Below, piece by piece: positions 1-46,713 of a stretch of 46,713 nt of DNA. The stretch's first letter is position 1, and every line of letters starts with the position of its first letter. Made by a program: the position numbers and the translations under genes. The notes below the pieces were generated by a model. It saw only the letters and a program-made list of their open reading frames with translations, did no database searches and was not told the origin of the DNA. The stretch is from IMG/VR virus record IMGVR_UViG_2563366972_000004. One strand, given 5' to 3'. Origin of the DNA: a virus. Lineage: Duplodnaviria; Heunggongvirae; Uroviricota; Caudoviricetes.

Positions 1-1164
1 TTACGCCTTCTTTATATCCTCCATAATTCCAGAGTGGGACATATTTGGGACATTATCACCAAAAATGTCGTCTATTTTCCTCGCATGCTCTGTCAAATGA
101 TTAGGCGCAAGGTGAGCATACCTACGAACCATTTCTGTGGACTCCCATCCGCCCATTTCCTGAAGCACTGATAATGGGACGCCTGACTGAATCAGCCAGC
201 TTGCCCAGGTGTGTCTGAGGTCATGGAAACGGAAATCTTCAATTCCTGCACGACGACAAGCTGATAGCCATGATGTCTTGCTGTCGATGCGCATCTTCCT
301 GACCGCAGGCGTTGATGTTCCATCTGCTCGCTTAGCCGCCTTGGTATGTACAAACACCCATTTGTGATGCTTGCCTATTTGATCACGCAACACTTTACAG
401 GCGGTATCGTTCAGCGCCACACCAATGGCGCGGTTTGATTTGCTCTCTTCTGGATTCACCCAGGCAACTCGTCGCTGCATGTCGATTTGTTGCCATTCCA
501 GATTTATGATGTTCGACTTTCTCAGACCAGTTGCCAGCGCAAACTTGACGACAGATTTCAGTGGTTCGGGGCACTCATCAATAAGGCGTTTTGCTTCCTC
601 CTTTTCCAGCCATCTGACTCGCTTGTTTCTGACCGCTGGTATCTTGATGACAGGCGCTTTTTCCAGCCACTTCCAGTCGCGTTCTGCAGCACGGAGAATG
701 GCCTTTATCATGGCAAGATGCTTTGCCTTTGTCTGAGTTGATACTGGCTTTGGTTCATAAACAGGCGGTTCTTTACCTTTCCTGATGGCGGCCTGAACTT
801 TCTGTTTCCATATTTCTTTCGTCTTTCTGTTATGCATTCTGCTTACAGCAGAGTAAATCTTTGCCTCCGAGATATCTTTAAGCCTTATACCCTCAAAATG
901 TTCAAGCCAGAACTCAATCCGGCTTTTATCTGAATCGAGAGATTTTTTATCAGCTTTTTCCTCAAGCCATCTTAGGCAGGCCTCTTCAAAAGTGACATCA
1001 GGTAAATCCCCTAGCTTTTCTACTCGCCAGAGTTCTGCTTTTCGCTTGTCGTGCAACTCCTGAGCTTGCCGCTTGTCCTTTGTGCCAAGAGATTCCTTAA
1101 TTCGTTTCCCGCCCGGGAGCGAATACGAGGCATACCATATTTCATTTCTGCGGAAGAGTGACAT
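1..1164 (-). CDS. int: Tyrosine integrase, P22-type (387 aa)
   Basis: Full ORF; N-terminus [18 protein letters not shown] and C-terminal HDLRHT...RYAH catalytic region match recalled P22-type integrases. Stop codon at 1-3. Confidence 0.9.
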
Positions 1165-4480: not shown

Positions 4481-4687
4481 TTAGTGATTCAGACCGTTGC
4501 CGCGCCCGTCGAGAAAAACTTCCACGAGCAAGTCACGGGTATAAGTGCGCTCGATGCCGCGATGCAGATAAAGCCGTCCGCGTAAATTAGCTGATGCAGT
4601 CCAGGTACCATCTTTGTGTTTGACCAGCATTCCTGGCATGACCGCACCGCGATTAACGGTCTGCGTTCCGTAATGTTGATGAACCAT
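4481..4687 (-). CDS. Hypothetical early protein in the kil/cIII position (68 aa from ATG at 4687; frame stays open to 4891)
   Basis: Best SD (AGGAG, 6-nt spacer) precedes the ATG at 4687. Frame is open upstream with a weaker ATG at 4771 and an Arg-rich segment. Not recognised as lambda kil or cIII. Confidence 0.4.
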   Translation of the reverse strand: MVHQHYGTQTVNRGAVMPGMLVKHKDGTWTASANLRGRLYLHRGIERTYTRDLLVEVFLDGRGNGLNH

Positions 4688-4949
4688 AAAAACTCCTGCC
4701 CGTAAGCTGGGCTGCTGAACATATAGAGACTTCTGCGCGTATTCAGGCGGTGGATGGCCGCCGGTTGTCATAACTAAGCCGCCTCGTTGAAGCGACTGAG
4801 GTATAAAGTGTTGTGTTGATTTCAGCTGGTCACACCGACGTTCACGCGTCCGCTTCACCCCTCGCACTCCCCGGAGCCTGCTGAAATTCAAGCTGCGGAT
4901 CTAAGCGGTCATCGCAACGGTGAATCAGGTGATTGCCGTATCGTTGTGT

Positions 4950-5030
4950 TGTTGCGACATGGGGATAATAGCTATTGCTATTGATGATATCAATACTTAT
5001 TGCTATTGCTAGATGTGTTTTGATATTAAA
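4950..5030. promoter_or_regulatory. Candidate OL/pL operator-promoter region
   Basis: Non-coding; two copies of TTGCTATTG(C) (4975-4983, 5000-5009) flank an inverted repeat TATTGAT-gat-ATCAATA (4979-4995). The same TTGCTATTG motif occurs twice in the cI-cro intergenic region. Confidence 0.4.
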
Positions 5031-5130
5031 TGTTTGATAGCAAAAAGAATTAATTTTGTGACTTGCATCGCATAGCGATAACTGAAGCGAGGTCGTGGTG
5101 GTTTTTTGAACGGTGTGTGATGAGGGGAGG

Positions 5131-5162
5131 GCAAAAGAAAACCCGGCACGGTGGCCGGGTTT
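5131..5162 (-). terminator. Intrinsic terminator closing the cI-distal cassette
   Basis: CCCGGC-acggtg-GCCGGG stem (5142-5159); on the minus strand it is followed by TTTTCTTTTG. Lies 77 nt after the stop of the 147-aa gene. Confidence 0.55.
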
Positions 5163-5236
5163 AGATGATTGGTTAAGAGCGAGGGTAATGGGGAATGAAA
5201 AATCGCTTTACCTAATGCAAGGGTGCGAGCATTTTC

Positions 5237-5680
5237 TTAAGCACTAAAGAAAAAGTACATTGATAGCTTATAAAGTCCTGTTCCTGCAGCGATGATTGCT
5301 GGAACACCAAGCAATACCGCAAGCTTTGCGTCTGAAATCTTTCTATCGACAGCATCACTTGATGGCTTGTTTGTTAAGGATTCTTTTATAGAGTCCAGAC
5401 GTGCAAGAATAGTTATCATATTTTTGTCGATAGCTTTAACGTCTGTTTTAAGTTCATCAACGTCTCGTTTGATATGAGCAACATCGGACTCCAGTTTTGC
5501 AACTTTTTCAGGCATGTTATCACTCCCAGACCCACTGCTACCACTTGATTGTAGCATGTCCCATCTTTTTCCAGATATACCTGCTAGCTGGGAAGACGCA
5601 CTGGAGTGCAAACAAAATGATTCTGCCGCCTTTGCAATTTTATCATTTAGGTTTGGAGCTTCGTAATAATCGTGTTTCAT
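5237..5680 (-). CDS. Unrecognised coiled-coil protein with single C-terminal membrane anchor (147 aa)
   Basis: ORF in track, ATG start. Gly/Ser linker (SSGSSGSGSD), heptad-like region (KVAKLESDVAHIKRDVDELKTDVKAIDKNMITILARLDSIKESL), C-terminal hydrophobic stretch LAVLLGVPAIIAAGTGLY. AT-rich. Confidence 0.6.
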   Translation of the reverse strand: MKHDYYEAPNLNDKIAKAAESFCLHSSASSQLAGISGKRWDMLQSSGSSGSGSDNMPEKVAKLESDVAHIKRDVDELKTDVKAIDKNMITILARLDSIKESLTNKPSSDAVDRKISDAKLAVLLGVPAIIAAGTGLYKLSMYFFFSA

Positions 5681-5692
5681 AATTAATTACGA

Positions 5693-5956
5693 TTAGTTTG
5701 TTTTAGCTTTGTCATGCTGGTCGCGAATGAAGTCAGCCAATTTAAGCATCAATTCTTCGGGCATTCTAATGGTTGCAATGTTGTACTTTATGTTCTCAAC
5801 ATCGTCACTTTCATCAACAGGCCATTCAGTTACATTATGAAAAAAAGAAATTGAACCTAGGCGCTGAGAGCCGTCACCAAACGAAGAGTAGCCAAACGCG
5901 TCGGCGTATGCATCGACACAGTTATTTGATTTTTTAACAAGTGTTTTATTACTCAT
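5693..5956 (-). CDS. Unrecognised small acidic protein (87 aa)
   Basis: ORF in track, ATG preceded by GGGAAAGG; stop 12 nt before the next gene's start. C-terminal IATIRMPEELMLKLADFI resembles a ribbon-helix-helix strand plus helix (tentative). AT-rich. Confidence 0.55.
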   Translation of the reverse strand: MSNKTLVKKSNNCVDAYADAFGYSSFGDGSQRLGSISFFHNVTEWPVDESDDVENIKYNIATIRMPEELMLKLADFIRDQHDKAKTN

Positions 5957-6038
5957 TTTTTGCCTTTCCCGTAATGTTATTTTTTATAAGGTATTTTCTT
6001 CAGCGTATTACCCAAAAGCCTCATCAACACGCGGCTGA

Positions 6039-6731
6039 TTATCCGTGTTTTCTGTACGTCTGCGGCATGCTCCCAATAACCTTACCGAATATGAATACCC
6101 GGTTCATCTCGTCTTTCTCGATCGGGTCCCACGGTGAGTAGCTCTTGTTATCAGAGATAACCAGTAGCTTATCCTTCATCATTTGCAGGCGCTTTACATG
6201 GGCGGTGTCGTCATACAGAAACGCATAGATACCATCACCGTCGAAAGATTTAACCGTGATATCAACGAACAGCAGATCACCTGGTTCGATCGTTCCTGAC
6301 ATGCTGTCACCACGCACGTTAATGATGCGGATATTTTCCGCCTTCCTGCCATCGAACATGTGACGAGCATCGTCAAACGAGTATTCAACCGAGCGTAGAA
6401 CTTCTACAAACTCACGGTTGATTACACCCGGCCCGGCACTGACTTCTATATCAAGAACGTCAATTTTGAAGTATTTGGAATGGCTGACAGCAGGCTTCCC
6501 TGATTGTTGACCGTCATTTCTCATCGGGCCTATGCCTGATGAGAGCCATTCTGTTCGAACACCCAATGCATTAGCTATTTCAACAATTTTTGTTGAGCCG
6601 CGCGCGTTGCCGCTTGTCAGTCTCCAGATTGTGGGTTGAGCTACGCCAGACGCCTTTGCAAGAGCGCCTTGAGACATTCCAGATTGTTCCATCGCTAGGT
6701 TTAAGCGATCAGCAAGAGTTTCTTTTTTCAT
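6039..6731 (-). CDS. cI: CI-like prophage repressor: N-terminal HTH, C-terminal S24 LexA-like peptidase domain (230 aa from ATG at 6731)
   Basis: HTH (MSQGALAKASGVAQPTIWRL) plus C-terminal autocleavage-type domain. The ATG at 6731 has no SD, consistent with a leaderless pRM transcript as in lambda; the track's longer ORF begins at an upstream TTG. Confidence 0.8.
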   Translation of the reverse strand: MKKETLADRLNLAMEQSGMSQGALAKASGVAQPTIWRLTSGNARGSTKIVEIANALGVRTEWLSSGIGPMRNDGQQSGKPAVSHSKYFKIDVLDIEVSAGPGVINREFVEVLRSVEYSFDDARHMFDGRKAENIRIINVRGDSMSGTIEPGDLLFVDITVKSFDGDGIYAFLYDDTAHVKRLQMMKDKLLVISDNKSYSPWDPIEKDEMNRVFIFGKVIGSMPQTYRKHG

Positions 6732-6841
6732 AAGTTTTAATTTATACGCTTGCGTATTGATGGTCAAAACACGTTTTGCTATTGCTTGGATTAATACGCA
6801 TTGCTATTATTCATTCATTGCAATACCAATAGGAATTGATA
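6732..6841. promoter_or_regulatory. OR / pRM-pR divergent control region
   Basis: Intergenic between divergent cI and cro; perfect palindrome ATACGC-tt-GCGTAT (6744-6757), TTGCTATTGC (6776-6785), TTGCTATT (6801-6808), palindrome ATTGCAAT (6817-6824). Confidence 0.6.
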
Positions 6842-7069
6842 ATGACAAATCAAACCATTCAACTCGCAATCAGTATTACAGGTAGTCAAAAACGACTGGC
6901 AGATCTATGCGGTGTAGCCCAACCCACAGTTTGGCGTTGGCTACACGGTGGCGGAATTGATGCCCGCTATGTAATGAAAATTGTCTCAGCCACTGGTGGA
7001 AAGATTAAACCAGCAGATATTCGTCCCGACCTCGCACCATTGTTTAACGCGAGTAATTCTGCCGCCTAA
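6842..7069 (+). CDS. cro: Cro-like HTH regulator (75 aa)
   Basis: Small HTH protein (GSQKRLADLCGVAQPTVWRWLHGG) divergent from cI; ATG at 6842 with AGGA 8 nt upstream. Confidence 0.75.
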   Translation: MTNQTIQLAISITGSQKRLADLCGVAQPTVWRWLHGGGIDARYVMKIVSATGGKIKPADIRPDLAPLFNASNSAA

Positions 7070-7093
7070 ACTGCGGCGTTAACTGATAAGGCA

Positions 7094-7639
7094 ATGACTA
7101 TGCAACCACTTACATACCAACAGACTAGCGGATTTAGCCCGACTGCGGTGATAAATCGTTCTCAAACAAAACAGGCGCCAGGCCACGAAAAAATCCGTGA
7201 TGCCGTTCGCGCCTGGTCGGCTGCAGATAATCAGGATGTTGTTGCCGCACTCATTGTGAATGAGTATCGGGAGCAGGGCGGCGGCACCATCGATTTCCCT
7301 GATGATGTCAGCCGTGCACGCCAGAAGCTGTTCCGCTTCCTCGATAACAAATTCGATTCTGAAAAATACCGAAATAACGTGCGTGAACTGACCCCGGCAA
7401 TTCTGGCGGTACTACCGCTGGAATATCGCGGCCACCTGGTTGAGCAGGATAGCTTCATGGCTCGGCTGGCTGAAATGGAAAAGGAACTCAGTGAGGCAAA
7501 ACAGGCTGTCATTCTCAACGCACCACGCCACCAGAAACTGAAGGAAATTAGTGAAGGTATTGTGTCGATGTTTCGTGTGGACCCAGATCTGGCTGGTCCA
7601 TTGATGGCGATGGTTACTACCATGCTGGGGGCGATATGA
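7094..7639 (+). CDS. CII-position regulator, YdaT-like (181 aa)
   Basis: Position right after cro; segment ...EYREQGGG...PAILAVLPLEYR... resembles recalled Rac YdaT-type proteins (from memory, unverified). Confidence 0.5.
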   Translation: MTMQPLTYQQTSGFSPTAVINRSQTKQAPGHEKIRDAVRAWSAADNQDVVAALIVNEYREQGGGTIDFPDDVSRARQKLFRFLDNKFDSEKYRNNVRELTPAILAVLPLEYRGHLVEQDSFMARLAEMEKELSEAKQAVILNAPRHQKLKEISEGIVSMFRVDPDLAGPLMAMVTTMLGAI

Positions 7640-11946: not shown

Positions 11947-12264
11947 ATGGATGCTGGCGTTCTCGTTCTAGCAGTTCAACAATCCCCAATCACAAAACAA
12001 TTCACTGATAACGAACTTTGCACACTCGCCTGGTTATGGCGAGCAGGGAATGTGATGTTAATTGCCTACCAGAACGTTACTCATCTTCTTCAGGATGCGG
12101 AGCATGGTGAAGCTGGTCACTTCACTTCCATCGAGCAAGAATATCCCCAGATACTCAACAGAGCGCGAGCAATCCTCGTCCGAGAAACGGCACATGTAAA
12201 ACTTCAGCCGTGGCAGGATGATAAGTGGAGTCGAGTATTGCCGTATTTGCGTCAAATCTGTTAG
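11947..12264 (+). CDS. Hypothetical protein (105 aa)
   Basis: ORF in track with AGGGA upstream; not recognised; could be a gene remnant. Confidence 0.3.
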   Translation: MDAGVLVLAVQQSPITKQFTDNELCTLAWLWRAGNVMLIAYQNVTHLLQDAEHGEAGHFTSIEQEYPQILNRARAILVRETAHVKLQPWQDDKWSRVLPYLRQIC

Positions 12265-12361
12265 GAGTATAGCCGCCAGCCATGAGTGTTGTATTAAAAC
12301 AAGGATGTCTATATATGGGATAGCGAGAGTATGAATATCAGTTATTTTGAGAGTTAACTGA

Positions 12362-12405
12362 TTGTGAAATTAGTTTTTTTCACAAACGAGTGGGGTTACT
12401 ATGAT
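12362..12405 (+). promoter_or_regulatory. Candidate sigma70 promoter with overlapping inverted-repeat operator for the 309-aa gene
   Basis: Inverted repeat TTGTGAAA-7nt-TTTCACAA (12362-12385); -35-like TTCACA (12379-12384) and -10-like TATGAT (12400-12405), 15-nt spacer. Confidence 0.4.
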
Positions 12406-12468
12406 GAGTGTTCTAATGCATAGGGAACACCTAATTTTTTCAATGAATTCAAATTGATAGGATCAAAA

Positions 12469-13398
12469 ATGGCACAACAGAGAACTACCTCCCTCAGATC
12501 CATACCTTTAGACTTAGATGTTAAGCAAGAGGCTGTCATTAACGGTATAGAAATGGGGGTACTCGATAACGGAATTCCGTACCTTACTCAGAATGGGTTG
12601 GCAAATGTTTGTGGTGTTCAGCGTTTGCGAATCAAGGAAATTACCGATGAGTGGGCTCAATCCGTTGAGAACGGTATTTTCAAAAAAGGAAGAATGACTT
12701 TTATTGGTACATATCTTCTTAATGAAGGTTTTACAGATGAAAAACTTTATATACCAATAATTCGAAATGGTGTTGAGTACCATGCTTATCCAGATGTTGT
12801 ATGCATGGCTATACTTGAATACTATGCCTTTGAAGCAAAACAAGCAGAAAGTGAGACTGCAATTAGATCTTACAGAGAGCTTGCTAAAAAAGGCCTCAAG
12901 ACATTTATATACGAGGCGCTAAAATATCAACCGGAGGACCCGTGGAGGCATTACCATGACAGAGTATCTTTATTAAAAGATAAGGGAACCATACCTGATG
13001 GGTATTTCATTATATTTAATGAAATTGCAGGTATGATGGTAGATCTCATCAATGCTGGATTAGCGATTAATCAGCATACCGTACCTGATGGCAGTGTTGG
13101 TTCTTGCTGGGCGCGTCACTGGAAAGCAAAGGGGTTAGCAACAGAATTTGGAGAAAGAGTAGACTGTGAGCATTATTACCCTGAAGATTTTCTTCAGGCA
13201 AGTTCCAATCCTCAGATCATTAATGCCTATCCTGATTCTGCATTGTCAGAGTTTCGTAGATGGTTTAAGCATGAATATTTAACCACAAAGTTCCCACCGT
13301 ATATTCTTAAAAAATCAAACGTGCTTCCTGGTGGTACAGAAGATGCTAATCGTCTGATAGAAGCTTTCAAAAAATCAGAGCTAGAAAATAAACCATAA
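12469..13398 (+). CDS. Unrecognised prophage accessory protein (309 aa from ATG at 12469)
   Basis: ORF in track; ATG at 12469 with AGGA 8 nt upstream; AT-rich; not recognised. Contains YPD-x12-EAK, a possible PD-(D/E)xK-like nuclease motif (tentative). Confidence 0.6.
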   Translation: MAQQRTTSLRSIPLDLDVKQEAVINGIEMGVLDNGIPYLTQNGLANVCGVQRLRIKEITDEWAQSVENGIFKKGRMTFIGTYLLNEGFTDEKLYIPIIRNGVEYHAYPDVVCMAILEYYAFEAKQAESETAIRSYRELAKKGLKTFIYEALKYQPEDPWRHYHDRVSLLKDKGTIPDGYFIIFNEIAGMMVDLINAGLAINQHTVPDGSVGSCWARHWKAKGLATEFGERVDCEHYYPEDFLQASSNPQIINAYPDSALSEFRRWFKHEYLTTKFPPYILKKSNVLPGGTEDANRLIEAFKKSELENKP

Positions 13399-15657: not shown

Positions 15658-16755
15658 TTAGAACTGGTAAACCAGACCTACAGCAACGATGTCATCAGTG
15701 CTTACACCGAGTGCTTTAGTGAAGTCATTTTTGTCAAGCAGGTTGATTTTGTAATCAACGAAAGTAGACATATTTTTGTTGAAGTAATAGGTTGCACCTA
15801 CATCAACATATTTGACTAAGTCCTGATCGCCCCATACTCCAAGATCTTTACCTTTAGATTGCAGGTAAGCAACGGACGGACGCAGACCGAAATCGAACTG
15901 ATATTGTGCAACAGCTTCGAAGTTTTGGGCTTTATTAGCAACGAAGTGATCAGCAAATACAGTCATATTCTGGGTTTCAGAATAGGTAGTGGCCAGGTAA
16001 ATGTTGTTAGCGTCATATTTCAGACCTGCGGCCCAAACTTCTGCATTTTTACCGGAAGCAAATACTTCAGGAAGAACTTTCCCTGCATTAACTTGAGTGT
16101 CGGTACGATCAGATTTCGCATAAGTTGCACCGATACCGAATCCTTCGTATTCATAGGTAGCAGAGAAACCGAAGCCATCACCGTTACCTTCAGTGTAGTT
16201 ATCGAAATCGCTACGATCGTTTTTGCCTTGGTACTGAGCAGCAAAGTTCAGACCATCAACCAGACCAAAGAAGTCGTTGTTACGATAGGTTGCAACACCA
16301 GTGGTGCGACCAGTCATGAACACATCTGTTTGGGTCCAGGTATCGCCACCGAATTCTGGCAGAACGTCAGTCCACGCACCGATGTCGTATGCTACACCGT
16401 AGTTACGGCCGTAATCGATTGAGCCGTAGTCACCGAATTTCAGGCCTGCAAATGCAAGACGGGTTTTGTCTTTGGAGGAACCTTGAGATTCAGCGCGGTT
16501 GCCTTTGAATTCATATTCCCACTGACCGAAACCAGTCAGTTGATCGTTGATTTGGGTTTCACCTTTGAAGCCAAGACGGGCATAAGTAGTATCACCATCA
16601 TCTGCATCATTAGAGGAGAAGTAGTGCTTGGCATTAACTTTCCCGTACAGATCCAGCTTGTTACTGTCTTTATTATAAATTTCAGCTGCCTGAGCAGACA
16701 TCGCCATCAGTACTGATGCAGCTACAGCAGAAATTGCCACTGTTAATTTTTTCAT
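15658..16755 (-). CDS. nmpC: Outer membrane porin NmpC (OmpC/OmpF family), 365 aa, apparently intact
   Basis: Signal peptide ([23 protein letters not shown]), porin beta-barrel motifs, C-terminal ...GLVYQF; matches recalled NmpC. No interruption seen. Confidence 0.9.
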
Positions 16756-19393: not shown

Positions 19394-19519
19394 GAGGTTG
19401 CCCCGTATTCAGTGTTGCTGATTTGTATTGTCTGAAGTTGTTTTTACGTTAAGTTGATGCAGATCAATTAATACGATACCTGCGTCATAATTGATTATTT
19501 GACGTGGTTTGATGGCGTA

Positions 19520-19780
19520 GATGCACGTTGTGATATGTAGATGATAATTATTATCATTTTTCGGGTCCTTTCCGGCGATCCGACAGGTTACGGGGCGGCG
19601 ACCTCGCGGGTTTTCGCTATTTATGAAAATTTTCCGGTTTAAGGCATTTCCGTTCTTCTTCGTCGTAACTTAATGTTTTTATTTAAAATACCCCCTGAAA
19701 AGAAAGGAAACGACAGGTGCTGAAAACGAGCTTTTGGGCCTCTGTCGTTTCCTTTCTCTGTTTTTGGCCGTGGAATGAAC
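19520..19780. other. cos: cos region: cosQ-cosN-cosB; 12-nt cohesive-end sequence GGGCGGCGACCT at 19593-19604
   Basis: Sequence from about 19580 to 19780 matches the recalled lambda genome ends (..CGACAGGTTACG|GGGCGGCGACCTCGCGGGTTTTCGCTATTTATGAAAATTTTCCGG..). Confidence 0.85.
19773..19780. repeat. Target site duplication GAATGAAC (left copy)
   Basis: Identical 8 bp immediately flank both ends of the IS66-family element. Confidence 0.85.
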
Positions 19781-19810
19781 GTAAGCGGCTCGCCAGAACC
19801 GTATTGATAT

Positions 19811-21382
19811 TTACCGAGTGGTCAGAGCAACCTTCCAGGGCAACAGATCGCGCACCCGGTTTGCCGGCCAGTCCGGGATATGTTCAATGACGTAACGCAG
19901 CCATTTTTCTGGCTCCACATTGTTCAGGCGGCATGTGCCGATCAGCGAGTACAACACCGCCGTATGTTCGCCACCGCTGTCGGAACCCGCGAACAGCCAG
20001 TTTTTCCGGCCTACGGCCACTCCCCGTAAGGCGTTCTCTGCGATGTTGTTGTCGATTTCCACCCAGCCATTACTGCAGTACACGTTCAGGCTGTCCCACT
20101 GTTTCAGCAGGTATGCGAACGCTTTTGCCGTATCTGAGTGACGCGACAGTGTTTTCATCTGAGTCTGTATCCAGTCATACAGTGACTGCATCAGTGGCGC
20201 AGCTCTGGCTTTTCTTGCCGCCAGACGCTGTTCTGCTGAACATCCCCGGACCTCCGCCTCAATGGCATACAGTTCACCGATACGCTGCAGGGCTTCCGTG
20301 GTGATATCGGTGGGCGCTCTTGCATGCACATCGTGGATTTTTCTCCGGGCATGAGCCATACACGCGGCTTCCGTTATTCTGCCGGATTCGTATAACGCCC
20401 GGTAACCACCGTAAGCATCGGCCTGAAGCACACCGCTGTAACCGGCCAGGTGATTCTGTGGATGGATACCTTTCCGGTCCGGACTGTACGCGAACCAGAC
20501 CGCCGGGGGCATCTGTGAACCGGCGTTACGGTCATCACGGACGTAGACCCACAGCCGGGCGGTCCGGGTTTTACCGCTGCCCGGCTCCTGGACCGGGACG
20601 GGGATATCATCAGCATGGACTTTACCGGGCATCAGCACATACTGGCGCAGGACGTCATACAGCGGCTCCAGCAGTTCAGCAACGGCACCTGTCCAGCGCC
20701 CCAGTGTGGCACGGCTCAGCTCCACTCCCTGACGACGGTATATTTCTGACTGACGGTATAACGGCAGATGGTCTGCATATTTCCCGGTGACAACATGAGC
20801 CAGAAGCCCCGCTCCGGCATAACTGCGTGTAATGGGTTTTGAAGGCACCGGTGCCTGCACGATATGGTCGCACCGGCAACAGGCCAGTTTCGGACGTTGT
20901 GTTTCGATGACCTTAAAGGCGCTGCTGATAAGTTCCAGTTGCTCTGACACATCACATCCCAGAGAAGTGAGGTCACCGCCGCAGGCCGGGCAGCATTCCT
21001 CTTCCGGCCGGATGACCCGGGTTTCACGGGGAAGTGAGGCCGGTAACGGTTTACGGGCTGAAGACTGGCGCAGGGCGGATGGCAGTGCCGGGTCATATTG
21101 CTCACCCAGTGTTTCCGCCATTTCTTCCTGAAGTGCGCTGATTCGCTCCTGTGCTTCCTGTATCTGCCGTTCGGTTTTTGCGCGAAGTTTTTCTGAGCTT
21201 TTACCGAACTGCATACGCTGCAGTTTCGCAACCAGCGCCTTCAGTCGGTTGATTTCGGAAGCATAAGCCGCCACCCGCTGTGAGAGCAGGCGGGTGTATT
21301 CAGCCATCTGGCGGATGGTGTCCTGTTGCGTCTGCAACAGTGCCCGCAGGCGGGCGTTCTCATGAGCAAGTGAGGTGTCCAT
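19811..21382 (-). CDS. IS66-family transposase TnpC (523 aa)
   Basis: Leucine-zipper N-terminus, Cys-rich CCPACG...CCRCDH motif, typical IS66 TnpC length. Confidence 0.85.
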
Positions 21383-21401
21383 ATCCTCACTTTACAACGG
21401 G

Positions 21402-21749
21402 TTATATGCGGATTCCAGCGCGTTCCGTTCGTTTCGGGTGCTTCCAGTTGATACCTTCAAGAAGCATGGATAACTGAGCCGGAGTAAGGTGCACCTTGCC
21501 GTCGCGGGTGACCGGCCAGACGAAGCGGCCCCGCTCCAGGCGTTTGGTGAAGAGGCACAGTCCGTCGCTGTCAGCCCACAGCACTTTTATCTGGTCACCC
21601 CGGCGTCCGCGGAAGATGAACAGGTGTCCGGAGAACGGGTCATCCTTCAGGACGTTCTGAACTTTTGATGCCAGGCCGTTAAAGCCATTCCGCATGTCAG
21701 TAATACCGGCAACCAGCCAGATACGTGAACCGGCAGGGAGAGATATCAT
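21402..21749 (-). CDS. IS66 accessory protein TnpB (115 aa)
   Basis: Typical IS66 orf2 size and position; overlaps orf1 stop. Confidence 0.8.
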   Translation of the reverse strand: MISLPAGSRIWLVAGITDMRNGFNGLASKVQNVLKDDPFSGHLFIFRGRRGDQIKVLWADSDGLCLFTKRLERGRFVWPVTRDGKVHLTPAQLSMLLEGINWKHPKRTERAGIRI

Positions 21750-22399
21750 CAGTGGCTGCTCCCTTTCATTTCGCGGATAAGTGTCTGTAATAACGCCGGC
21801 GTCAGTTTACCTTTAAGCCTGAGAGTTCCGGCCGGCAGAACCAGCTCACAGCACAGACTGTCTGGCGGTGTATTTATCTGTTCAGGTATCTGCACTGGTG
21901 CCGGGATTTTATTATCCGGCTCCGGAGTTAACGTCACGGGAAGCAGCGATGTTTCATGTTCGCCGGGCGGCTGCAGGCCGCCGTTACGCCAGAGATGCCG
22001 CCAGTTGAAGAGCAGGTTATCGTTGATTCCGTTCTCACGAGCTATTTGTGCGACACAGGCACCGGGTAAAAGAGTTTGCTGAACAAGTCTCCATTTAAAC
22101 TCCGGTGAAAATCGGTTCCGGCGGGTTTTCTCTGCTTTCACAGGCTGAGTCACTGTCGGGGTTGAAGGATATCGCCCCGGGAAAAGAGCCCGGGCCAGTT
22201 GCCTGCAGGAATATTCACCGGAAAGGGGCCAGTCAGTGAATACCTGGTGAAATCGCTTCACCAGAGAAAAAATGGCGGTTTTGCTGACACCAGTCTGCGC
22301 AGAAATGCGCGGGTACGACAGTGACTCGTCAAATCTCAGCTGTAGCACACGCAGGATCAATTCCGGATTATCTGCCAGTACCGCCTTTCGTGCATTCAT
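21749..22399 (-). CDS. IS66 accessory protein TnpA/orf1 (216 aa)
   Basis: First ORF of the IS66 operon with N-terminal HTH-like region. Confidence 0.7.
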   Translation of the reverse strand: MNARKAVLADNPELILRVLQLRFDESLSYPRISAQTGVSKTAIFSLVKRFHQVFTDWPLSGEYSCRQLARALFPGRYPSTPTVTQPVKAEKTRRNRFSPEFKWRLVQQTLLPGACVAQIARENGINDNLLFNWRHLWRNGGLQPPGEHETSLLPVTLTPEPDNKIPAPVQIPEQINTPPDSLCCELVLPAGTLRLKGKLTPALLQTLIREMKGSSH

Positions 22400-22484
22400 C
22401 TTAAATGTCCTTTTACTGCGAAAATGGACATTAGTATCGGAAACAGGAAAGGGAGGCGAAAGACGGTTTAAATGAGGCGCTTAC

Positions 22485-22492
22485 GAATGAAC
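22485..22492. repeat. Target site duplication GAATGAAC (right copy)
   Basis: Second copy; ends 1 bp before the Nu1 ATG (22494). Confidence 0.85.
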
Positions 22493-22493
22493 A

Positions 22494-23013
22494 ATGGAAG
22501 TCAACAAAAAGCAGCTGGCTGACATTTTCGGTGCGAGTATCCGTACCATTCAGAACTGGCAGGAACAGGGAATGCCCGTTCTGCGAGGCGGTGGCAAGGG
22601 TAATGAGGTGCTTTATGACTCTGCCGCCGTTATAAGATGGTATGCCGAAAGGGATGCTGAAATTGAGAACGAAAAGCTGCGCCGGGAAGTTGAAGAACTG
22701 CGGCAGGCCAGCGAGACAGATCTCCAGCCAGGGACTATTGAGTACGAACGCCATCGACTTACGCGTGCGCAGGCCGACGCACAGGAGCTGAAAAATGCCA
22801 GAGACTCCGCTGAAGTGGTGGAAACCGCATTCTGTACTTTCGTGCTGTCGCGGATCGCAGGTGAAATTGCCAGTATTCTCGACGGGATCCCCCTGTCGGT
22901 GCAGCGGCGTTTTCCGGAACTGGAAAACCGACATGTTGATTTCCTGAAACGGGATATCATCAAAGCCATGAACAAAGCAGCCGCGCTGGATGAACTGATA
23001 CCGGGGTTGCTGA

Positions 23014-23039
<26 letters not shown>
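22494..23039 (+). CDS. nu1: Terminase small subunit Nu1 (181 aa)
   Basis: MEVNKKQLADIFGASIRTIQNWQEQGMPVLRGGGKGNEVLYD... matches recalled lambda Nu1. Confidence 0.95.
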
Positions 23040-26720
<3,681 letters not shown>

Positions 26721-42030: not shown

Positions 42031-45000
42031 GTGAATATGGCAGTAAAGATTTCAGGTGTACTGAAAGACGGCACAGGAAAACCGGTACAGAACTGCACAA
42101 TCCAGCTGAAAGCAAAACGTAACAGCACCACGGTGGTGGTGAACACGGTGGCCTCAGAAAATCCGGATGAAGCCGGGCGTTACAGCATGGACGTTGAGTA
42201 CGGTCAGTACAGCGTTATTCTGTTGGTGGAAGGCTTCCCGCCATCGCATGCCGGGACCATCACCGTGTATGAAGACTCACAACCGGGTACGCTGAATGAT
42301 TTTCTTGGTGCCATGACGGAGGATGATGCCCGTCCGGAGGCACTGCGCCGTTTTGAACTGATGGTGGAAGAGGTGGCGCGTAACGCGTCCGCGGTGGCAC
42401 AGAACACGGCAGCCGCGAAGAAGTCAGCCAGCGATGCCAGCACATCAGCCCGTGAGGCGGCAACCCATGCGACTGATGCTGCAGGCTCAGCACGCGCAGC
42501 CAGCACGTCAGCCGGACAGGCCGCGTCGTCGGCTCAGTCAGCATCTTCCAGCGCAGGAACGGCATCAACAAAGGCCAGTGAAGCATCGAAAAGTGCTGCT
42601 GCTGCAGAGTCCTCAAAAAGCGCGGCAGCTACCAGTGCCGGTGCGGCGAAAACGTCAGAAACGAATGCGGCAGCGTCACAACAATCAGCAGCCACTTCTG
42701 CATCCGCCGCGACCACGAAGGCGTCAGAAGCAGCCACCTCAGCCCGGGATGCGGCGGCCTCAAAAGAGGCAGCGAAATCATCAGAAACGAGCGCATCATC
42801 AAGCGCCAGTAGTGCCGCTTCCTCGGCAACGGCGGCAGGCAATTCCGCGAAGGCGGCAAAGACGTCTGAGACAAACGCCAGGTCTTCTGAAACGGCAGCG
42901 TGACAGAGCGCCTCGGCTGCGGCAGGCTCAAAAACAGCGGCTGCGTCGTCTGCCAGTGCCGCGTCAACAAGTGCCGGGCAGGCCTCAGCCAGTGCCACCG
43001 CCGCCGGAAAATCGGCAGAAAGCGCCGCATCGTCTGCTTCAACAGCCACAACGAAGGCTGGCGAAGCCACTGAACAGGCCACGGCAGCAGCGAGGTCAGC
43101 TTCCGCAGCGAAGACATCCGAAACGAACGCGAAAGCGTCGGAAACCAGCGCAGAATCCTCAAAAACGGCTGCCGCATCGTCCGCCAGTTCGGCGGCGTCA
43201 TCGGCATCATCGGCGTCTGCTTCAAAAGATGAGGCGACCAGACAAGCGTCCGCAGCGAAGGGCAGCGCCACGACGGCATCCACGAAGGCGACAGAGGCAG
43301 CTGGCAGTGCGACGGCGGCAGCACAGAGCAAAAGTACGGCGGAATCCGCGGCAACGCGCGCCGAGACAGCGGCAAAACGGGCAGAGGATATTGCATCCGC
43401 CGTGGCGCTTGAGGATGCAAGTACGACGAAAAAGGGGATAGTACAGCTCAGCAGTGCGACCAACAGTACGTCTGAAACGCTGGCGGCAACGCCAAAGGCA
43501 GTAAAATCAGCCTATGACAATGCAGAGAAACGTCTGCAGAAAGACCAGAACGGCGCTGATATACCCGATAAGGGACGCTTCCTGAACAACATTAACGCGG
43601 TCAGTAAAACAGACTTTGCTGATAAGCGTGGTATGCGTTATGTGCGGGTTAACGCTCCTGCAGGTGCAACATCTGGAAAATATTACCCTGTTGTTGTTAT
43701 GCGTTCTGCTGGCTCAGTAAGCGAACTGGCATCAAGGGTCATTATCACCACGGCAACGCGAACCGCAGGCGATCCGATGAATAACTGCGAGTTTAACGGA
43801 TTTGTTATGCCTGGTGGCTGGACTGACAGGGGGCGTTATGCTTATGGAATGTTCTGGCAATATCAAAACAATGAACGAGCCATCCACTCAATAATGATGA
43901 GTAATAAGGGCGATGATTTGCGCTCTGTGTTCTATGTTGATGGCGCTGCTTTCCCTGTTTTTGCGTTTATCGAAGATGGCCTGTCAATATCCGCACCTGG
44001 TGCTGATCTCGTTGTTAATGATACGACCTATAAGTTTGGGGCAACAAATCCGGCGACTGAATGTATCGCGGCGGACGTTATCCTTGATTTTAAGAGTGGG
44101 CGTGGTTTTTATGAGTCTCATTCGTTAATCGTTAACGATAACTTGTCGTGCAAAAAACTTTTTGCCACAGACGAAATTGTAGCGCGTGGTGGTAATCAGA
44201 TTCGAATGATAGGTGGGGAGTATGGGGCATTATGGCGTAATGATGGCGCTAAAACTTACCTGCTGCTTACCAATCAAGGTGATGTTTATGGTGGCTGGAA
44301 TACATTAAGACCGTTTGCTATTGATAACGCAACCGGCGAACTGGTTATTGGAACCAAACTGTCCGCAAGTCTGAACGGTAATGCATTAACAGCAACAAAG
44401 CTGCAAACGCCAAGACGGGTTTCTGGTGTTGAGTTTGATGGTTCCAAAGATATTACTTTAACCGCTGCGCATGTGGCTGCTTTTGCCAGAAGGGCAACGG
44501 ATACATATGCCGATGCGGATGGTGGCGTTCCCTGGAATGCCGAATCAGGCGCTTATAATGTCACCCGCTCTGGCGACAGCTATATTCTGGTTAACTTCTA
44601 TACCGGAGTCGGAAGTTGCCGGACCTTGCAGATGAAGGCGCATTACAGAAATGGTGGTCTGTTCTACCGTTCTTCAAGAGACGGTTATGGTTTTGAGGAT
44701 GACTGGGCAGAAGTTTATACCTCGAAAAATCTTCCACCAGAAAGCTACCCAGTCGGCGCACCAATCCCGTGGCCATCAGATACCGTTCCGTCTGGTTATG
44801 CCCTGATGCAGGGGCAGACTTTTGACAAATCTGCTTACCCGAAACTTGCAGCCGCTTATCCGTCAGGCGTGATCCCTGATATGCGTGGCTGGACGATTAA
44901 GGGCAAACCTGCCAGTGGTCGGGCCGTATTGTCTCAGGAACAGGACGGCATTAAATCGCATACCCACAGCGCCAGCGCATCCAGTACAGATTTGGGGACG

Positions 45001-45450
45001 AAAACCACATCGTCGTTTGATTACGGCACTAAATCCACGAATAACACCGGGGCGCATACGCACAGTCTGAGTGGCTCTACGGGGTCTGCCGGTGCTCATA
45101 CTCATGGTAATGGTATTCGTTGGCCAGGAGGCGTCGGTTCTGCGTTAGCATTTTATGATGGCGGTGGGTTCACTTATGTCCAGGATTCACAGTATCAAGT
45201 AAGCCCGGGGACTTCTTCCAGTAGATCGTATTATCAACGTATTCAGACACAGTCAGCAGGTGCTCATACCCACTCGCTGTCTGGTACTGCAGCAAGTTCT
45301 GGCGCACATGCACATACTGTAGGTATTGGTGCGCATACGCACTCGGTTGCGATTGGCTCACATGGACACACCATCACCGTTAACGCTGCTGGTAACGCGG
45401 AAAACACCGTCAAAAACATCGCATTTAACTATATTGTGAGGCTTGCATAA
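42031..45450 (+). pseudogene. stf: Side tail fibre stf, one reading frame interrupted by a single in-frame TGA at 42901-42903
   Basis: Track ORFs 42031-42903 and 43402-45450 are in the same frame (both start coordinates are 1 mod 3). Hand translation shows the frame is open from 42904 to 45450 (..[15 protein letters not shown]..). Ala/Ser-rich repeats then C-terminal domain with GAHTHS repeats. Confidence 0.8.
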
Positions 45451-46122: not shown

Positions 46123-46713
46123 TTATATGTCAGGTGTCTGAAGTTTTGCTTTGGCTCTTAAAATGGTTTGCCGCGAGGTTTTGAATTCCCGGGCAATGGC
46201 ACTTATACTTACACCTGACTTAATTCGTTCGAATACCGCCTGTTTCTGTTCTTCATTTAACACAGGTGGTCGACCAAAACGTTTCCCTGCGCCGCGGGCT
46301 CTTACTATCCCGGAATGAGTGCGTTCAAGTAAAAGGTCTCGTTCAAATTCAGCGACTGCTGAAATTACTTGCATCATCATTTTTCCTGTTGGACTGGTCA
46401 GGTCAATGCCCCCCAATGCTAAGCAATGCACTCTGATACCTGTTTCGGTCAGTTGTTCCACTGTTTTCCTGATATCCATTGCATTACAACCAAGGCGATC
46501 CAGTTTTGTCACAATCAATTGATCACCACATTTCAGGCGAGCAAGCAACCGGTTAAAACCAGGACGCTCACTGGTTGCTGCTGAGCCGCTAATGTGTTCT
46601 TCGATTATTTGCTGAGGTTTGATTTTAAAACCTGCACTTTCGATTTCCCGGCGTTGATTTTCGGTGGTCTGATCCAGCGTTGATATCCGACAGTAAGCAA
46701 AAATTTGAGACAT
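46123..46713 (-). CDS. pin: Serine recombinase / DNA invertase, Pin-like (196 aa)
   Basis: N-terminal catalytic motif ([10 protein letters not shown]), C-terminal HTH; position after tfa as for pinR/pinQ in K-12 prophages. ATG is the last codon of the window (46711-46713). Confidence 0.85.

Follow-up and report, generated by a model that had tools for sequence, protein, structure and literature searches.

Does an insertion sequence lodged between the packaging site and the first terminase gene of a lambda-like prophage disable that prophage? The question is posed by the window, the whole stretch of 46,713 nucleotides analysed here (IMG/VR record IMGVR_UViG_2563366972_000004), in which an IS66-family insertion sequence (IS), a mobile element of a common type, occupies the spacer of about 25 bp between the cosB subsite R1 and the Nu1 start codon. 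An earlier note on this DNA had judged the otherwise intact-looking prophage to be probably impaired in terminase expression or packaging. The locus offers a natural test of two things: whether lambda Nu1 needs its native leader with a weak SD, and whether the cosB–Nu1 spacer can hold cargo.

An intact IS66-family element between cosB and Nu1

The edges of the element, read directly from the sequence, are GTAAGCGGCTCG... on the left and ...GAGGCGCTTAC on the right, with the tips GTAAGCG...CGCTTAC (Table 1). The terminal inverted repeats are imperfect; they were recovered by repeat search, and our own comparison of the ends gives 7/7 matches at the tips and 18/25 overall. TnpC matches the profile PF03050 (DDE_Tnp_IS66; E=6e-104, profile positions 1-283 of 284) as well as the zf-IS66, LZ_Tnp_IS66 and IS66_C domains, and its score with the NCBIfam model NF033517 (transpos_IS66; E=3.6e-143), for which the cut-off is 180, is 477 bits. 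The genes are arranged on the minus strand in the order tnpA-tnpB-tnpC, with base 21749 shared by tnpA and tnpB, so that they run antisense to the late operon of the phage, with the tnpA-proximal end next to Nu1. Four features of IS66 membership are present, namely TnpC, the accessory tnpA and tnpB genes, the GTAAGCG end repeats and an 8-bp duplication. The earlier note had read the element as a member of the IS66 family of 2704 bp with inverted GTAAGCG ends and three transposase genes antisense to the late transcript; profile matches, repeat search and end comparison bear this out, and the interval that it gave, 19773-22492, is the IS plus both duplication copies.

Table 1. Features at the cos–Nu1 locus, in positions of the window
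Feature	Coordinates	Strand	Basis and remarks
cosN cohesive-end sequence	19593..19604	+	GGGCGGCGACCT; equivalent of lambda bp 1-12; invariant vs PhiR34_1
cosB	19645..19758	+	R3 ~19645-19660, I1 region, inverted R2 ~19700-19715, R1 ~19743-19758; limits approximate
Target-site duplication, left copy (8 bp)	19773..19780		GAATGAAC; single in empty sites
IS679-like IS66-family insertion sequence	19781..22484	-	2,704 bp; IS66 profile matches, end repeats, target duplication
Terminal inverted repeat, tnpC-proximal	19781..19805		GTAAGCGGCTCGCCAGAACCGTATT; repeat search, 18/25 vs opposite end
tnpC, DDE transposase	19811..21382	-	523 aa, full length; PF03050 and NF033517
tnpB, IS66 accessory protein	21402..21749	-	115 aa; PF05717 E=4.7e-40; NF033819 above cut-off
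tnpA, IS66 accessory HTH protein	21749..22399	-	216 aa; HTH_Tnp_1; NF038385 (IS66_access_TnpA) E=9.4e-86, above cut-off
Terminal inverted repeat, tnpA-proximal	22460..22484		...GGCGCTTAC; repeat search, end comparison
Target-site duplication, right copy	22485..22492		GAATGAAC; Nu1 leader -9 to -2
Nu1, terminase small subunit	22494..23039	+	181 aa, intact; PF07471 E=2.4e-101, profile 1-164 of 164
A, terminase large subunit	23014..24939	+	641 aa, intact; 99.7% identical to PhiR34_1, full length

An exact 8-mer repeat placed precisely at both IS ends has a chance probability of ~1.5e-5. Furthermore, independent 2,704-bp copies (loci L002 and L004; other genomes) have the same end bases and carry 8-bp duplications of their own, CCCGAAAC and GTTGCTGC. 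At the right junction, GAATGAAC extends to 22492 and is followed by a single A (22493) and the Nu1 ATG at 22494, as the earlier note had it; in relatives, among them the phage PhiR34_1, a lone GAATGAAC runs directly into AATGGAA. The insertion is a recent transposition of an IS66 element into this spacer, given the perfect duplication, the three full-length ORFs and the 99.9% identity of the IS to a plasmid copy. With these ORFs and both ends intact, the element is probably transposition-competent.

As to its place within the family, the nearest copies (99.2-99.9% identity) are annotated as 'IS66 family' only. By comparison, the window IS shares 96.7% identity with copies of the same length, 2,704 bp, annotated at NCBI as 'IS66-like element IS679 family', from which it has thus diverged by ~3%. 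IS679, an element of the EPEC plasmid pB171 reportedly described by Han et al. in 2001 (J Bacteriol 183:4296), has the same 2,704-bp length, tnpA-tnpB-tnpC trio, imperfect end repeats of ~25 bp and 8-bp duplication. Our best guess, from comparison with the copies annotated at NCBI, is that the window IS would be an isoform of IS679.

The junction is private to one source

The empty site with one GAATGAAC is present in >100 related phages and prophages. It was recovered in 30 places with exact Nu1, porin or FII alleles by exact protein look-up, and in 79/79 of the IMG/VR loci having upstream sequence. Siblings at 99.0-99.6% identity lack the IS, which is the outcome of a check that the earlier note had proposed. 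In the assembly collection, 35,593 blocks list the exact Nu1 protein. The exact right-junction 27-mer gave 0 matches in each of genome_contigs, viral_contigs and metagenome_contigs, megablast of the IS with its flanks did not find the same insertion among 5,426 complete E. coli genomes and 50,697 phage records, and no insertion of any kind was seen in the Nu1 leader among the phage isolates or IMG/VR contigs searched. In the phage collection searched, most of the element is found in two records only, GER2 (full length) and PPwrbA_EC3734 (partial), in neither case at the cos–Nu1 spacer. The insertion is a single-strain event, with a junction private to this source in the collections searched, and its absence from phage databases is therefore expected. 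Since it was seen nowhere else among thousands of sampled prophages with the same Nu1 allele, there is no sign of spread.

Two leads were set aside. Nineteen E. coli genomes that seemed to hold most of the query carry IS66-family copies elsewhere in the late region, at bor/iss, rrrD, gpA and upstream of ylcI; we claim no hotspot, because their shared orientation is an artefact of joining same-strand pieces into places. An IMG/VR contig that starts exactly at the Nu1 ATG (L033) was considered as a possible assembly break at an IS, and was dropped as ambiguous; it differs from the window by 1 nt and is no closer than loci with intact leaders.

The cos site is complete and the prophage is largely preserved

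cosQ, cosN and cosB (R3-I1-R2-R1) are contiguous and unbroken, lie entirely left of the IS and are near-identical to those of the Escherichia phage PhiR34_1; the R2/R1 inverted repeat of cosB was recovered by repeat search. The cohesive end GGGCGGCGACCT is identical to that of lambda as given in PMC12315714. The insertion point corresponds to about lambda bp 188, right of R1, which lies at lambda bp 164 or below (PMC4669245). In lambda, cos is a cis site of ~200 bp, and cosB comprises 120 bp ending with R1, the role of which is accessory (PMC4669245); passive prophages are substrates for terminase supplied in trans, and a cos site beside a Nu1 deletion still works (PMC4669245). With a trans-acting enzyme and a site that is self-contained, cos recognition and cleavage would be unaffected by the IS. 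The distance of ~2.7 kb now separating cosB from Nu1, which the earlier note took to be harmful, is not expected to affect packaging, because cosQ, cosN and cosB are uninterrupted and terminase acts in trans; moreover, the Sakai prophage Sp4, discussed below, is still packaged. We asked whether a G-to-A change in R3 at 19646 (lambda bp 54) might be a further lesion in packaging and decided against it, as 9/10 loci with the same Nu1 allele carry this change; the critical positions are bp 56, 58 and 59, and bp 54 is not among them (PMC4669245).

Apart from the IS, which PhiR34_1 lacks, the deposited complete genome of this phage (PV340559.1) is collinear with the window at 97-99.5% nucleotide identity. 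The window minus the IS measures 44,009 bp and aligns to positions 18-43562 of 44,626. The cos–Nu1 leaders of the two differ only by the bp-54 G/A of R3 and by an indel of 1 nt that lies upstream of cosN. Nu1 is 99.4% identical to its PhiR34_1 counterpart, and the structural, lysis, replication and Q genes are full length, as in PhiR34_1. The immunity regions are different, with cro matching at 48% and a part of cI at 82%, and where PhiR34_1 has ybcL/ybcM, the window carries BstA and an Ant-like gene. All genes shared with PhiR34_1 are full length with the sole exception of the side-tail-fibre gene stf, which is intact in PhiR34_1 and has a premature TGA at codon 291 in the window; exact protein look-up returned no record of the truncated 290-aa Stf, and stf is dispensable in lambda (PMC10695390). 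The description of the prophage as otherwise intact was thus nearly right, stf being what it missed. PhiR34_1 is not mentioned in the literature searched; PMC12315714 was considered as the source of the PhiR phages, and it is not.

With the IS, the prophage genome would measure ~47.8 kb, compared with 48.5 kb in lambda, a value that is only an estimate because the att sites and the true prophage ends lie outside the window.

The insertion replaces the Nu1 leader

The native Nu1 leader survives only from -9 to -1, and everything from -10 upstream is IS-derived, in line with the replacement of native sequence that the earlier note had described. The right duplication copy holds an in-frame TGA at -6 to -4, so no upstream alternative start is available to Nu1. 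With the IS in place, GUGGA at -12 to -8, a weak SD-like element, is lost and has no correctly spaced substitute: the IS end gives Nu1 a new leader from -10 to -34 that includes GAGG at -20 to -17, and this nearest good SD core lies ~16 nt from the AUG. In a thermodynamic calculation, anti-SD pairing over the segment from -17 to -4 weakens from -4.8 to -0.3 kcal/mol with the IS. The SD-plus-spacing term of an RBS model goes from -3.3 to +1.6 kcal/mol, which is ~5 kcal/mol worse. The calculated local mRNA accessibility, including that of the start codon, is not clearly different between the native and IS leaders. The RBS model predicts a drop in Nu1 of ~10-fold, an unreliable figure from which we draw only a qualitative conclusion, since the same model ranks D and E worst among the genes; D and E are lambda's most abundant late proteins. 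Nothing on an SD or RBS of Nu1 was found in the literature searched. Translation of A may be partly coupled to that of Nu1.

With respect to transcription, the late genes of lambda are expressed from one long PR' transcript (PMC10695390). Our consensus scan gave no location for pR' in the window. Even without the IS, the path of the late transcript contains antisense genes, bor and ylcI, which are located between Rz and Nu1; terminator-like matches in the IS are at or below the expectation from shuffled sequence. By analogy with lambda, late transcription under Q antitermination would run on through the antisense IS, 2.7 kb long, and reach Nu1, just as it passes bor/ylcI. The antisense genes that the earlier note had placed in the late path are real, and their weight as a problem was overstated.

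Consequences for terminase and packaging

The reading that we favour, with somewhat better than even confidence, is that an intact IS679-like element recently entered the cosB R1–Nu1 spacer of a PhiR34_1-like prophage and left it limited in terminase, with a lower burst, and not dead. With GUGGA lost, the leader cut to -9 to -1 and GAGG too distant, initiation of Nu1 translation would be reduced. The genome of ~47.8 kb would remain packageable, and any co-resident lambdoid prophage of the same packaging specificity could rescue it. Of the two impairments raised in the earlier note, that of terminase expression is plausible from the loss of GUGGA, and that of packaging through cosB displacement is not supported.

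It is rather unlikely that the insertion effectively kills the prophage and strands it, through an unexpressed terminase or through packaging failure once cosB is displaced from Nu1. Such an outcome would be in keeping with the loss of the SD-like element, the TGA that bars an upstream start, the absence of leader insertions from the phage isolates and IMG/VR contigs searched, and an essentially invariant leader, CGTGGAATGAACA, across 79 IMG/VR loci. A-rich, weakly structured leaders, however, commonly permit some SD-less initiation, and start-codon accessibility is not clearly different here. In addition, the invariance is uninformative on constraint, as identity among the 80 loci is 99-100% over their whole length, and absence from databases is what a single-strain event would give. 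Displacement of cosB has no known harmful mechanism, given a complete cos and a trans-acting terminase, and antisense genes were in the late transcript path already. The nu1 gene itself is essential, with an EOP of ~5e-6 on knockdown (PMC10695390). Little terminase is produced in any case, and an additional loss could leave too little for plaque formation. The opposite outcome, a fully viable IS-carrying phage in which the spacer accommodates cargo and translation of Nu1 is normal, is unlikely as well. The IS breaks neither an ORF nor any defined cos subsite, and genome size is within limits; since the native SD is weak and unconventional (hybridisation of only -3.3 to -4.8 kcal/mol), Nu1 may initiate largely SD-free from its A-rich leader. 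Start-codon accessibility is not clearly different with the IS. Against neutrality stand the worsened SD-plus-spacing term and the lack of any second occurrence among the thousands of sampled prophages with the same Nu1 allele.

Two further explanations carry very little weight. An outward or hybrid promoter at the IS end, such as some IS families make, would express Nu1 and A without Q, for example in the lysogen; we consider this extremely improbable, as a promoter scan of the plus strand at the IS right end facing Nu1 found no sigma-70-like site, and the best candidate found by hand (TTTAAA, 17-nt spacer, AACAAT) matches at 8/12 positions and would start inside Nu1, downstream of the ATG. 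An artefact, whether repeat misassembly or misassigned ends or duplication, is scarcely credible either. The IS is multi-copy (a query that included phage flanks matched a median of 2 places per genome, with a maximum of 40), and such repeats can confuse short-read assemblies; yet misassembly would not make a perfect target duplication, the two flanks, joined to each other, reproduce the empty site of relatives exactly, and the ends agree to the base with independent copies that have duplications of their own. The misassignment that the earlier note had named as grounds for refutation is thereby effectively refuted.

It is less likely than not that the prophage is still inducible and packages its genome with the IS intact, which would make the R1–Nu1 spacer a tolerated cargo site. 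To our knowledge, viable phages seldom carry an intact IS in their genomes. If true, a functional lambda-like phage would be taking a whole IS66-family element, probably an active one, from host to host. The importance of the insertion is mainly local. Its sole plausible cost is that the terminase small subunit is expressed less, and the prophage should not be annotated as defective from the IS insertion alone. Neither the current understanding of IS66 elements nor that of lambda packaging is challenged.

Comparison with other insertions near cos

Our comparison with known insertions reveals two related cases. In prophage Sp4 of O157:H7 Sakai (nu1::ISEc8; PMC2669165), an IS likewise lies at the very start of a lambda-like packaging module with cos intact. 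Sp4 is still packaged, most likely by the terminase of another prophage (PMC2669165). The two cases differ in what is interrupted: ISEc8 splits the nu1 coding sequence, so that terminase is lost and packaging needs the enzyme of Sp14, whereas in the window prophage the coding sequence is untouched, Nu1 and A are full length and the leader/RBS alone is changed. ISEc8 is an IS66-family element too.

The other case, found here, is an ISCro1-like insertion in a prophage of E. coli 300709 and WS4437A-1 (locus L001). It resembles the window IS in belonging to the IS66 family, in orientation, in its position within the cos–Nu1 interval and in its 8-bp duplication, GGCTTTTT. The element is distinct, with a tnpA of 678 bp compared with 651 bp in the window IS, and the insertion is an independent event. 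Its site lies ~40 bp upstream of that of the window IS, between R2 and R1, and thus splits cosB, which the window IS leaves whole; the prophage that carries it has decayed heavily, and its A and portal genes are truncated.

Structure and identity of the insertion

Direct reading of window positions 19500–22800 bears out the earlier note on the length of the IS (2,704 bp) and on its perfect 8-bp target duplication. The terminal inverted repeat was recovered by a repeat search, with tips matching at 7/7 positions and ends overall at 18/25. The interior is filled by three minus-strand ORFs, each scoring far over cut-off against IS66-specific Pfam and NCBIfam models. To the right of the IS, Nu1 is full length (PF07471, E=2.4e-101) and gpA is present.

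Coordinates of the insertion and of prophage features in the window
Feature	Position	Strand	Detail
Target duplication, left copy	19773–19780		GAATGAAC; read from sequence
IS left end	starts 19781		GTAAGCGGCTCG...; read from sequence
IS right end	finishes 22484		...GAGGCGCTTAC; read from sequence
Target duplication, right copy	22485–22492		GAATGAAC; then single A, then Nu1 ATG at 22494
tnpA	22399–21749	minus	216 aa
tnpB	21749–21402	minus	115 aa
tnpC	21382–19811	minus	523 aa
Cohesive-end sequence	begins 19593
R1	~19743–19758
R3 substitution	19646		G-to-A; lambda bp 54 equivalent
Integrase gene	1–1164		window starts exactly at its stop codon
Immunity region	4481–7100
BstA and Ant-like ORFs	11947–13398	plus
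Porin gene	15658–16755	minus	365 aa
stf	42031–45450	plus	TGA at codon 291 (42901–42903)
Pin-type invertase gene	46123–46713		window ends exactly at its start codon

The IS belongs to the IS66 family and is very common in enterobacteria, with full-length copies in 1,303 plasmid records. It is 96.7% identical, at equal length, to copies annotated 'IS679 family', and IS679 was reportedly described by Han et al. in 2001 as 2,704 bp long with 8-bp duplications; because identity, length and duplication size agree, IS679-like is our candidate name.

Empty site and age of the insertion

In Escherichia phage PhiR34_1 (PV340559.1), which differs from the window left flank at only two aligned positions, ...GGCCGTGGAATGAAC continues directly into AATGGAA. 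A single-copy empty site is also found in dozens of lambda-like phages, lambda included (two pieces spanning 800 bp), in 79/79 IMG/VR loci possessing upstream sequence, and in 30 genomic places picked by exact identity to the window's Nu1, porin or FII protein, among which siblings with the empty site are 99.0–99.6% identical across 10–20 kb. Independent 2,704-bp copies in other genomes have the same terminal bases and their own 8-bp duplications. These alignments show genuine transposition of the IS into a site known in its empty form.

The exact junction was not found in 5,426 complete E. coli genomes or 50,697 phage records, and was likewise missing from GTDB species representatives, IMG/VR and JGI metagenome contigs. 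Three observations, namely a duplication without mismatches, ORFs that are all intact and a plasmid copy (H20) 99.9% identical to the IS, agree in indicating a recent event confined to the source strain.

The host prophage

Without the IS, the window (44,009 bp) is collinear with PhiR34_1 (44,626 bp; GenBank host, MG1655). All PhiR34_1 head, tail, lysis, replication, recombination and Q genes have full-length, ungapped window counterparts, and the gene-level differences are allelic. By comparison, the immunity region differs, with cI 82% identical over residues 24–251 only and cro 48%; it matches sibling locus L018 and holds full-length Kil-like, cI-like (S24 peptidase) and cII-like genes. Where PhiR34_1 has ybcL/ybcM, the window has a 105-aa Ant/P22_AR_C-like ORF followed by a gene for the BstA abortive-infection protein (314 aa, phrog_6287, E=1.9e-136), a block common to siblings L018, L026 and L027.

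The sole gene lesion is a premature stop in stf, at a codon that is GGA (Gly) in PhiR34_1, beyond which the frame stays open for ~848 more codons. It may be likened to the stf frameshift of laboratory lambda, whose side tail fibres are dispensable (PMC10695390); the truncated 290-aa product has no record in the protein collection. The interval from Q to the holin gene contains a porin gene oriented against the late genes. It is annotated OmpD in PhiR34_1, the identical product is Pfam Porin_1, and the assembly collection lists the exact protein in 17,985 blocks, indicating a widespread phage-borne porin. Both window limits coincide with gene boundaries, as if a prophage call had been cut there; ~1.1 kb equivalent to the PhiR34_1 right end, together with both att sites, falls outside.

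Consequences for packaging and terminase expression

The earlier note held the prophage to be probably impaired, in part through displacement of cosB from Nu1. The 2.7-kb displacement is geometrically true. Lambda cos is a self-contained ~200-bp site with a 120-bp cosB (R3, I1, R2, R1), in which the Δ[R2,1] deletion spans bp 92–164 and R1 is merely accessory (PMC4669245). Since the insertion point corresponds to lambda bp 188, the whole of cos lies uninterrupted to its left. Terminase acts in trans: passive prophages are packaged by helper phages, and cos beside a Nu1 deletion is functional (PMC4669245). In O157 Sakai, packaging of Sp4 still takes place although its nu1 is disrupted by ISEc8, and the Sp14 terminase is most likely responsible (PMC2669165). 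With cos intact and terminase trans-acting, the separation has no known functional consequence. The genome with the IS, estimated at ~47.8 kb after adding the missing PhiR34_1 ends, is smaller than that of lambda (48.5 kb) and should lie inside the generally accepted limits for packaging. The R3 substitution, relative to lambda and PhiR34_1, lies in the conserved CGTTTCC core; it was rejected as a packaging lesion, being a common polymorphism present in 9/10 loci with the identical Nu1 allele, with which it possibly co-varies.

The lambda late polymerase is Q-modified and terminator-resistant. The late genes form a single long PR' transcript (PMC10695390), whose path between Rz and Nu1 already includes antisense bor and ylcI. 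Terminator-like matches in the region show no excess over shuffle expectation. The argument from antisense transposase genes in the transcript path finds no support. A scan of the IS end revealed no promoter-like site directed at Nu1, and pR' was not located by simple scan; we infer late read-through of the IS into Nu1.

As regards translation, the native Nu1 leader is retained only from –9 to –1. UACGA now stands in place of the weak SD-like GUGGA (–12 to –8); the energy of pairing with the 3' end of 16S rRNA, taken over –17 to –4, weakens from –4.8 to –0.3 kcal/mol, and GAGG (–20 to –17) is the only good SD core that the IS end offers. No alternative start further upstream is available, since a TGA occurs in frame at –6 to –4. 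With the SD-like element lost, poorer translation of Nu1 is plausible; the impairment reading of the earlier note is supported in part. A crude initiation model predicts a ~10-fold drop, of which only the direction is trusted because the same model misranks D and E. As nu1 is essential (PMC10695390), a large enough drop would matter; loss of prophage function outright, set beside the intact cos, seems unlikely. Start-codon accessibility shows no clear difference between native and IS leaders, and an insertion without functional effect, set against the lost SD-like element, appears slightly less probable still. We lean modestly towards a hypomorph, with reduced Nu1 and a lower burst.

IS66-family insertions in other lambdoid late regions

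An ISCro1-like IS66-family element lies inside cosB, between R2 and R1, in the E. coli 300709 prophage (L001 1856–4557, NZ_CP025903.1), with the duplication GGCTTTTT. The same insertion occurs in WS4437A-1, and the prophage carrying it is heavily degraded, with gpA and portal truncated. This insertion is independent of the window event, ~40 bp away from the window site. IS679-like or ISCro1-like elements also occur inside bor/iss, rrrD and gpA, and upstream of nohD, in E. coli ETEC1746, 120899, MSI001, Nord58 and 98206 (L002, L003, L004, L016 and L017); their common orientation was rejected as a search artefact. Viral contig L033 (IMGVR_UViG_2585427777_000025), 1 nt from the window across 943 bp, starts exactly at the Nu1 ATG; this start may stem from clipping of a prophage call at the edge of a gene, or else from a break in assembly at a repeat preceding Nu1. 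IS66-family insertion within or around a lambdoid packaging module is already documented in Sp4 (PMC2669165), and the window insertion is a fresh instance of this known type of event.
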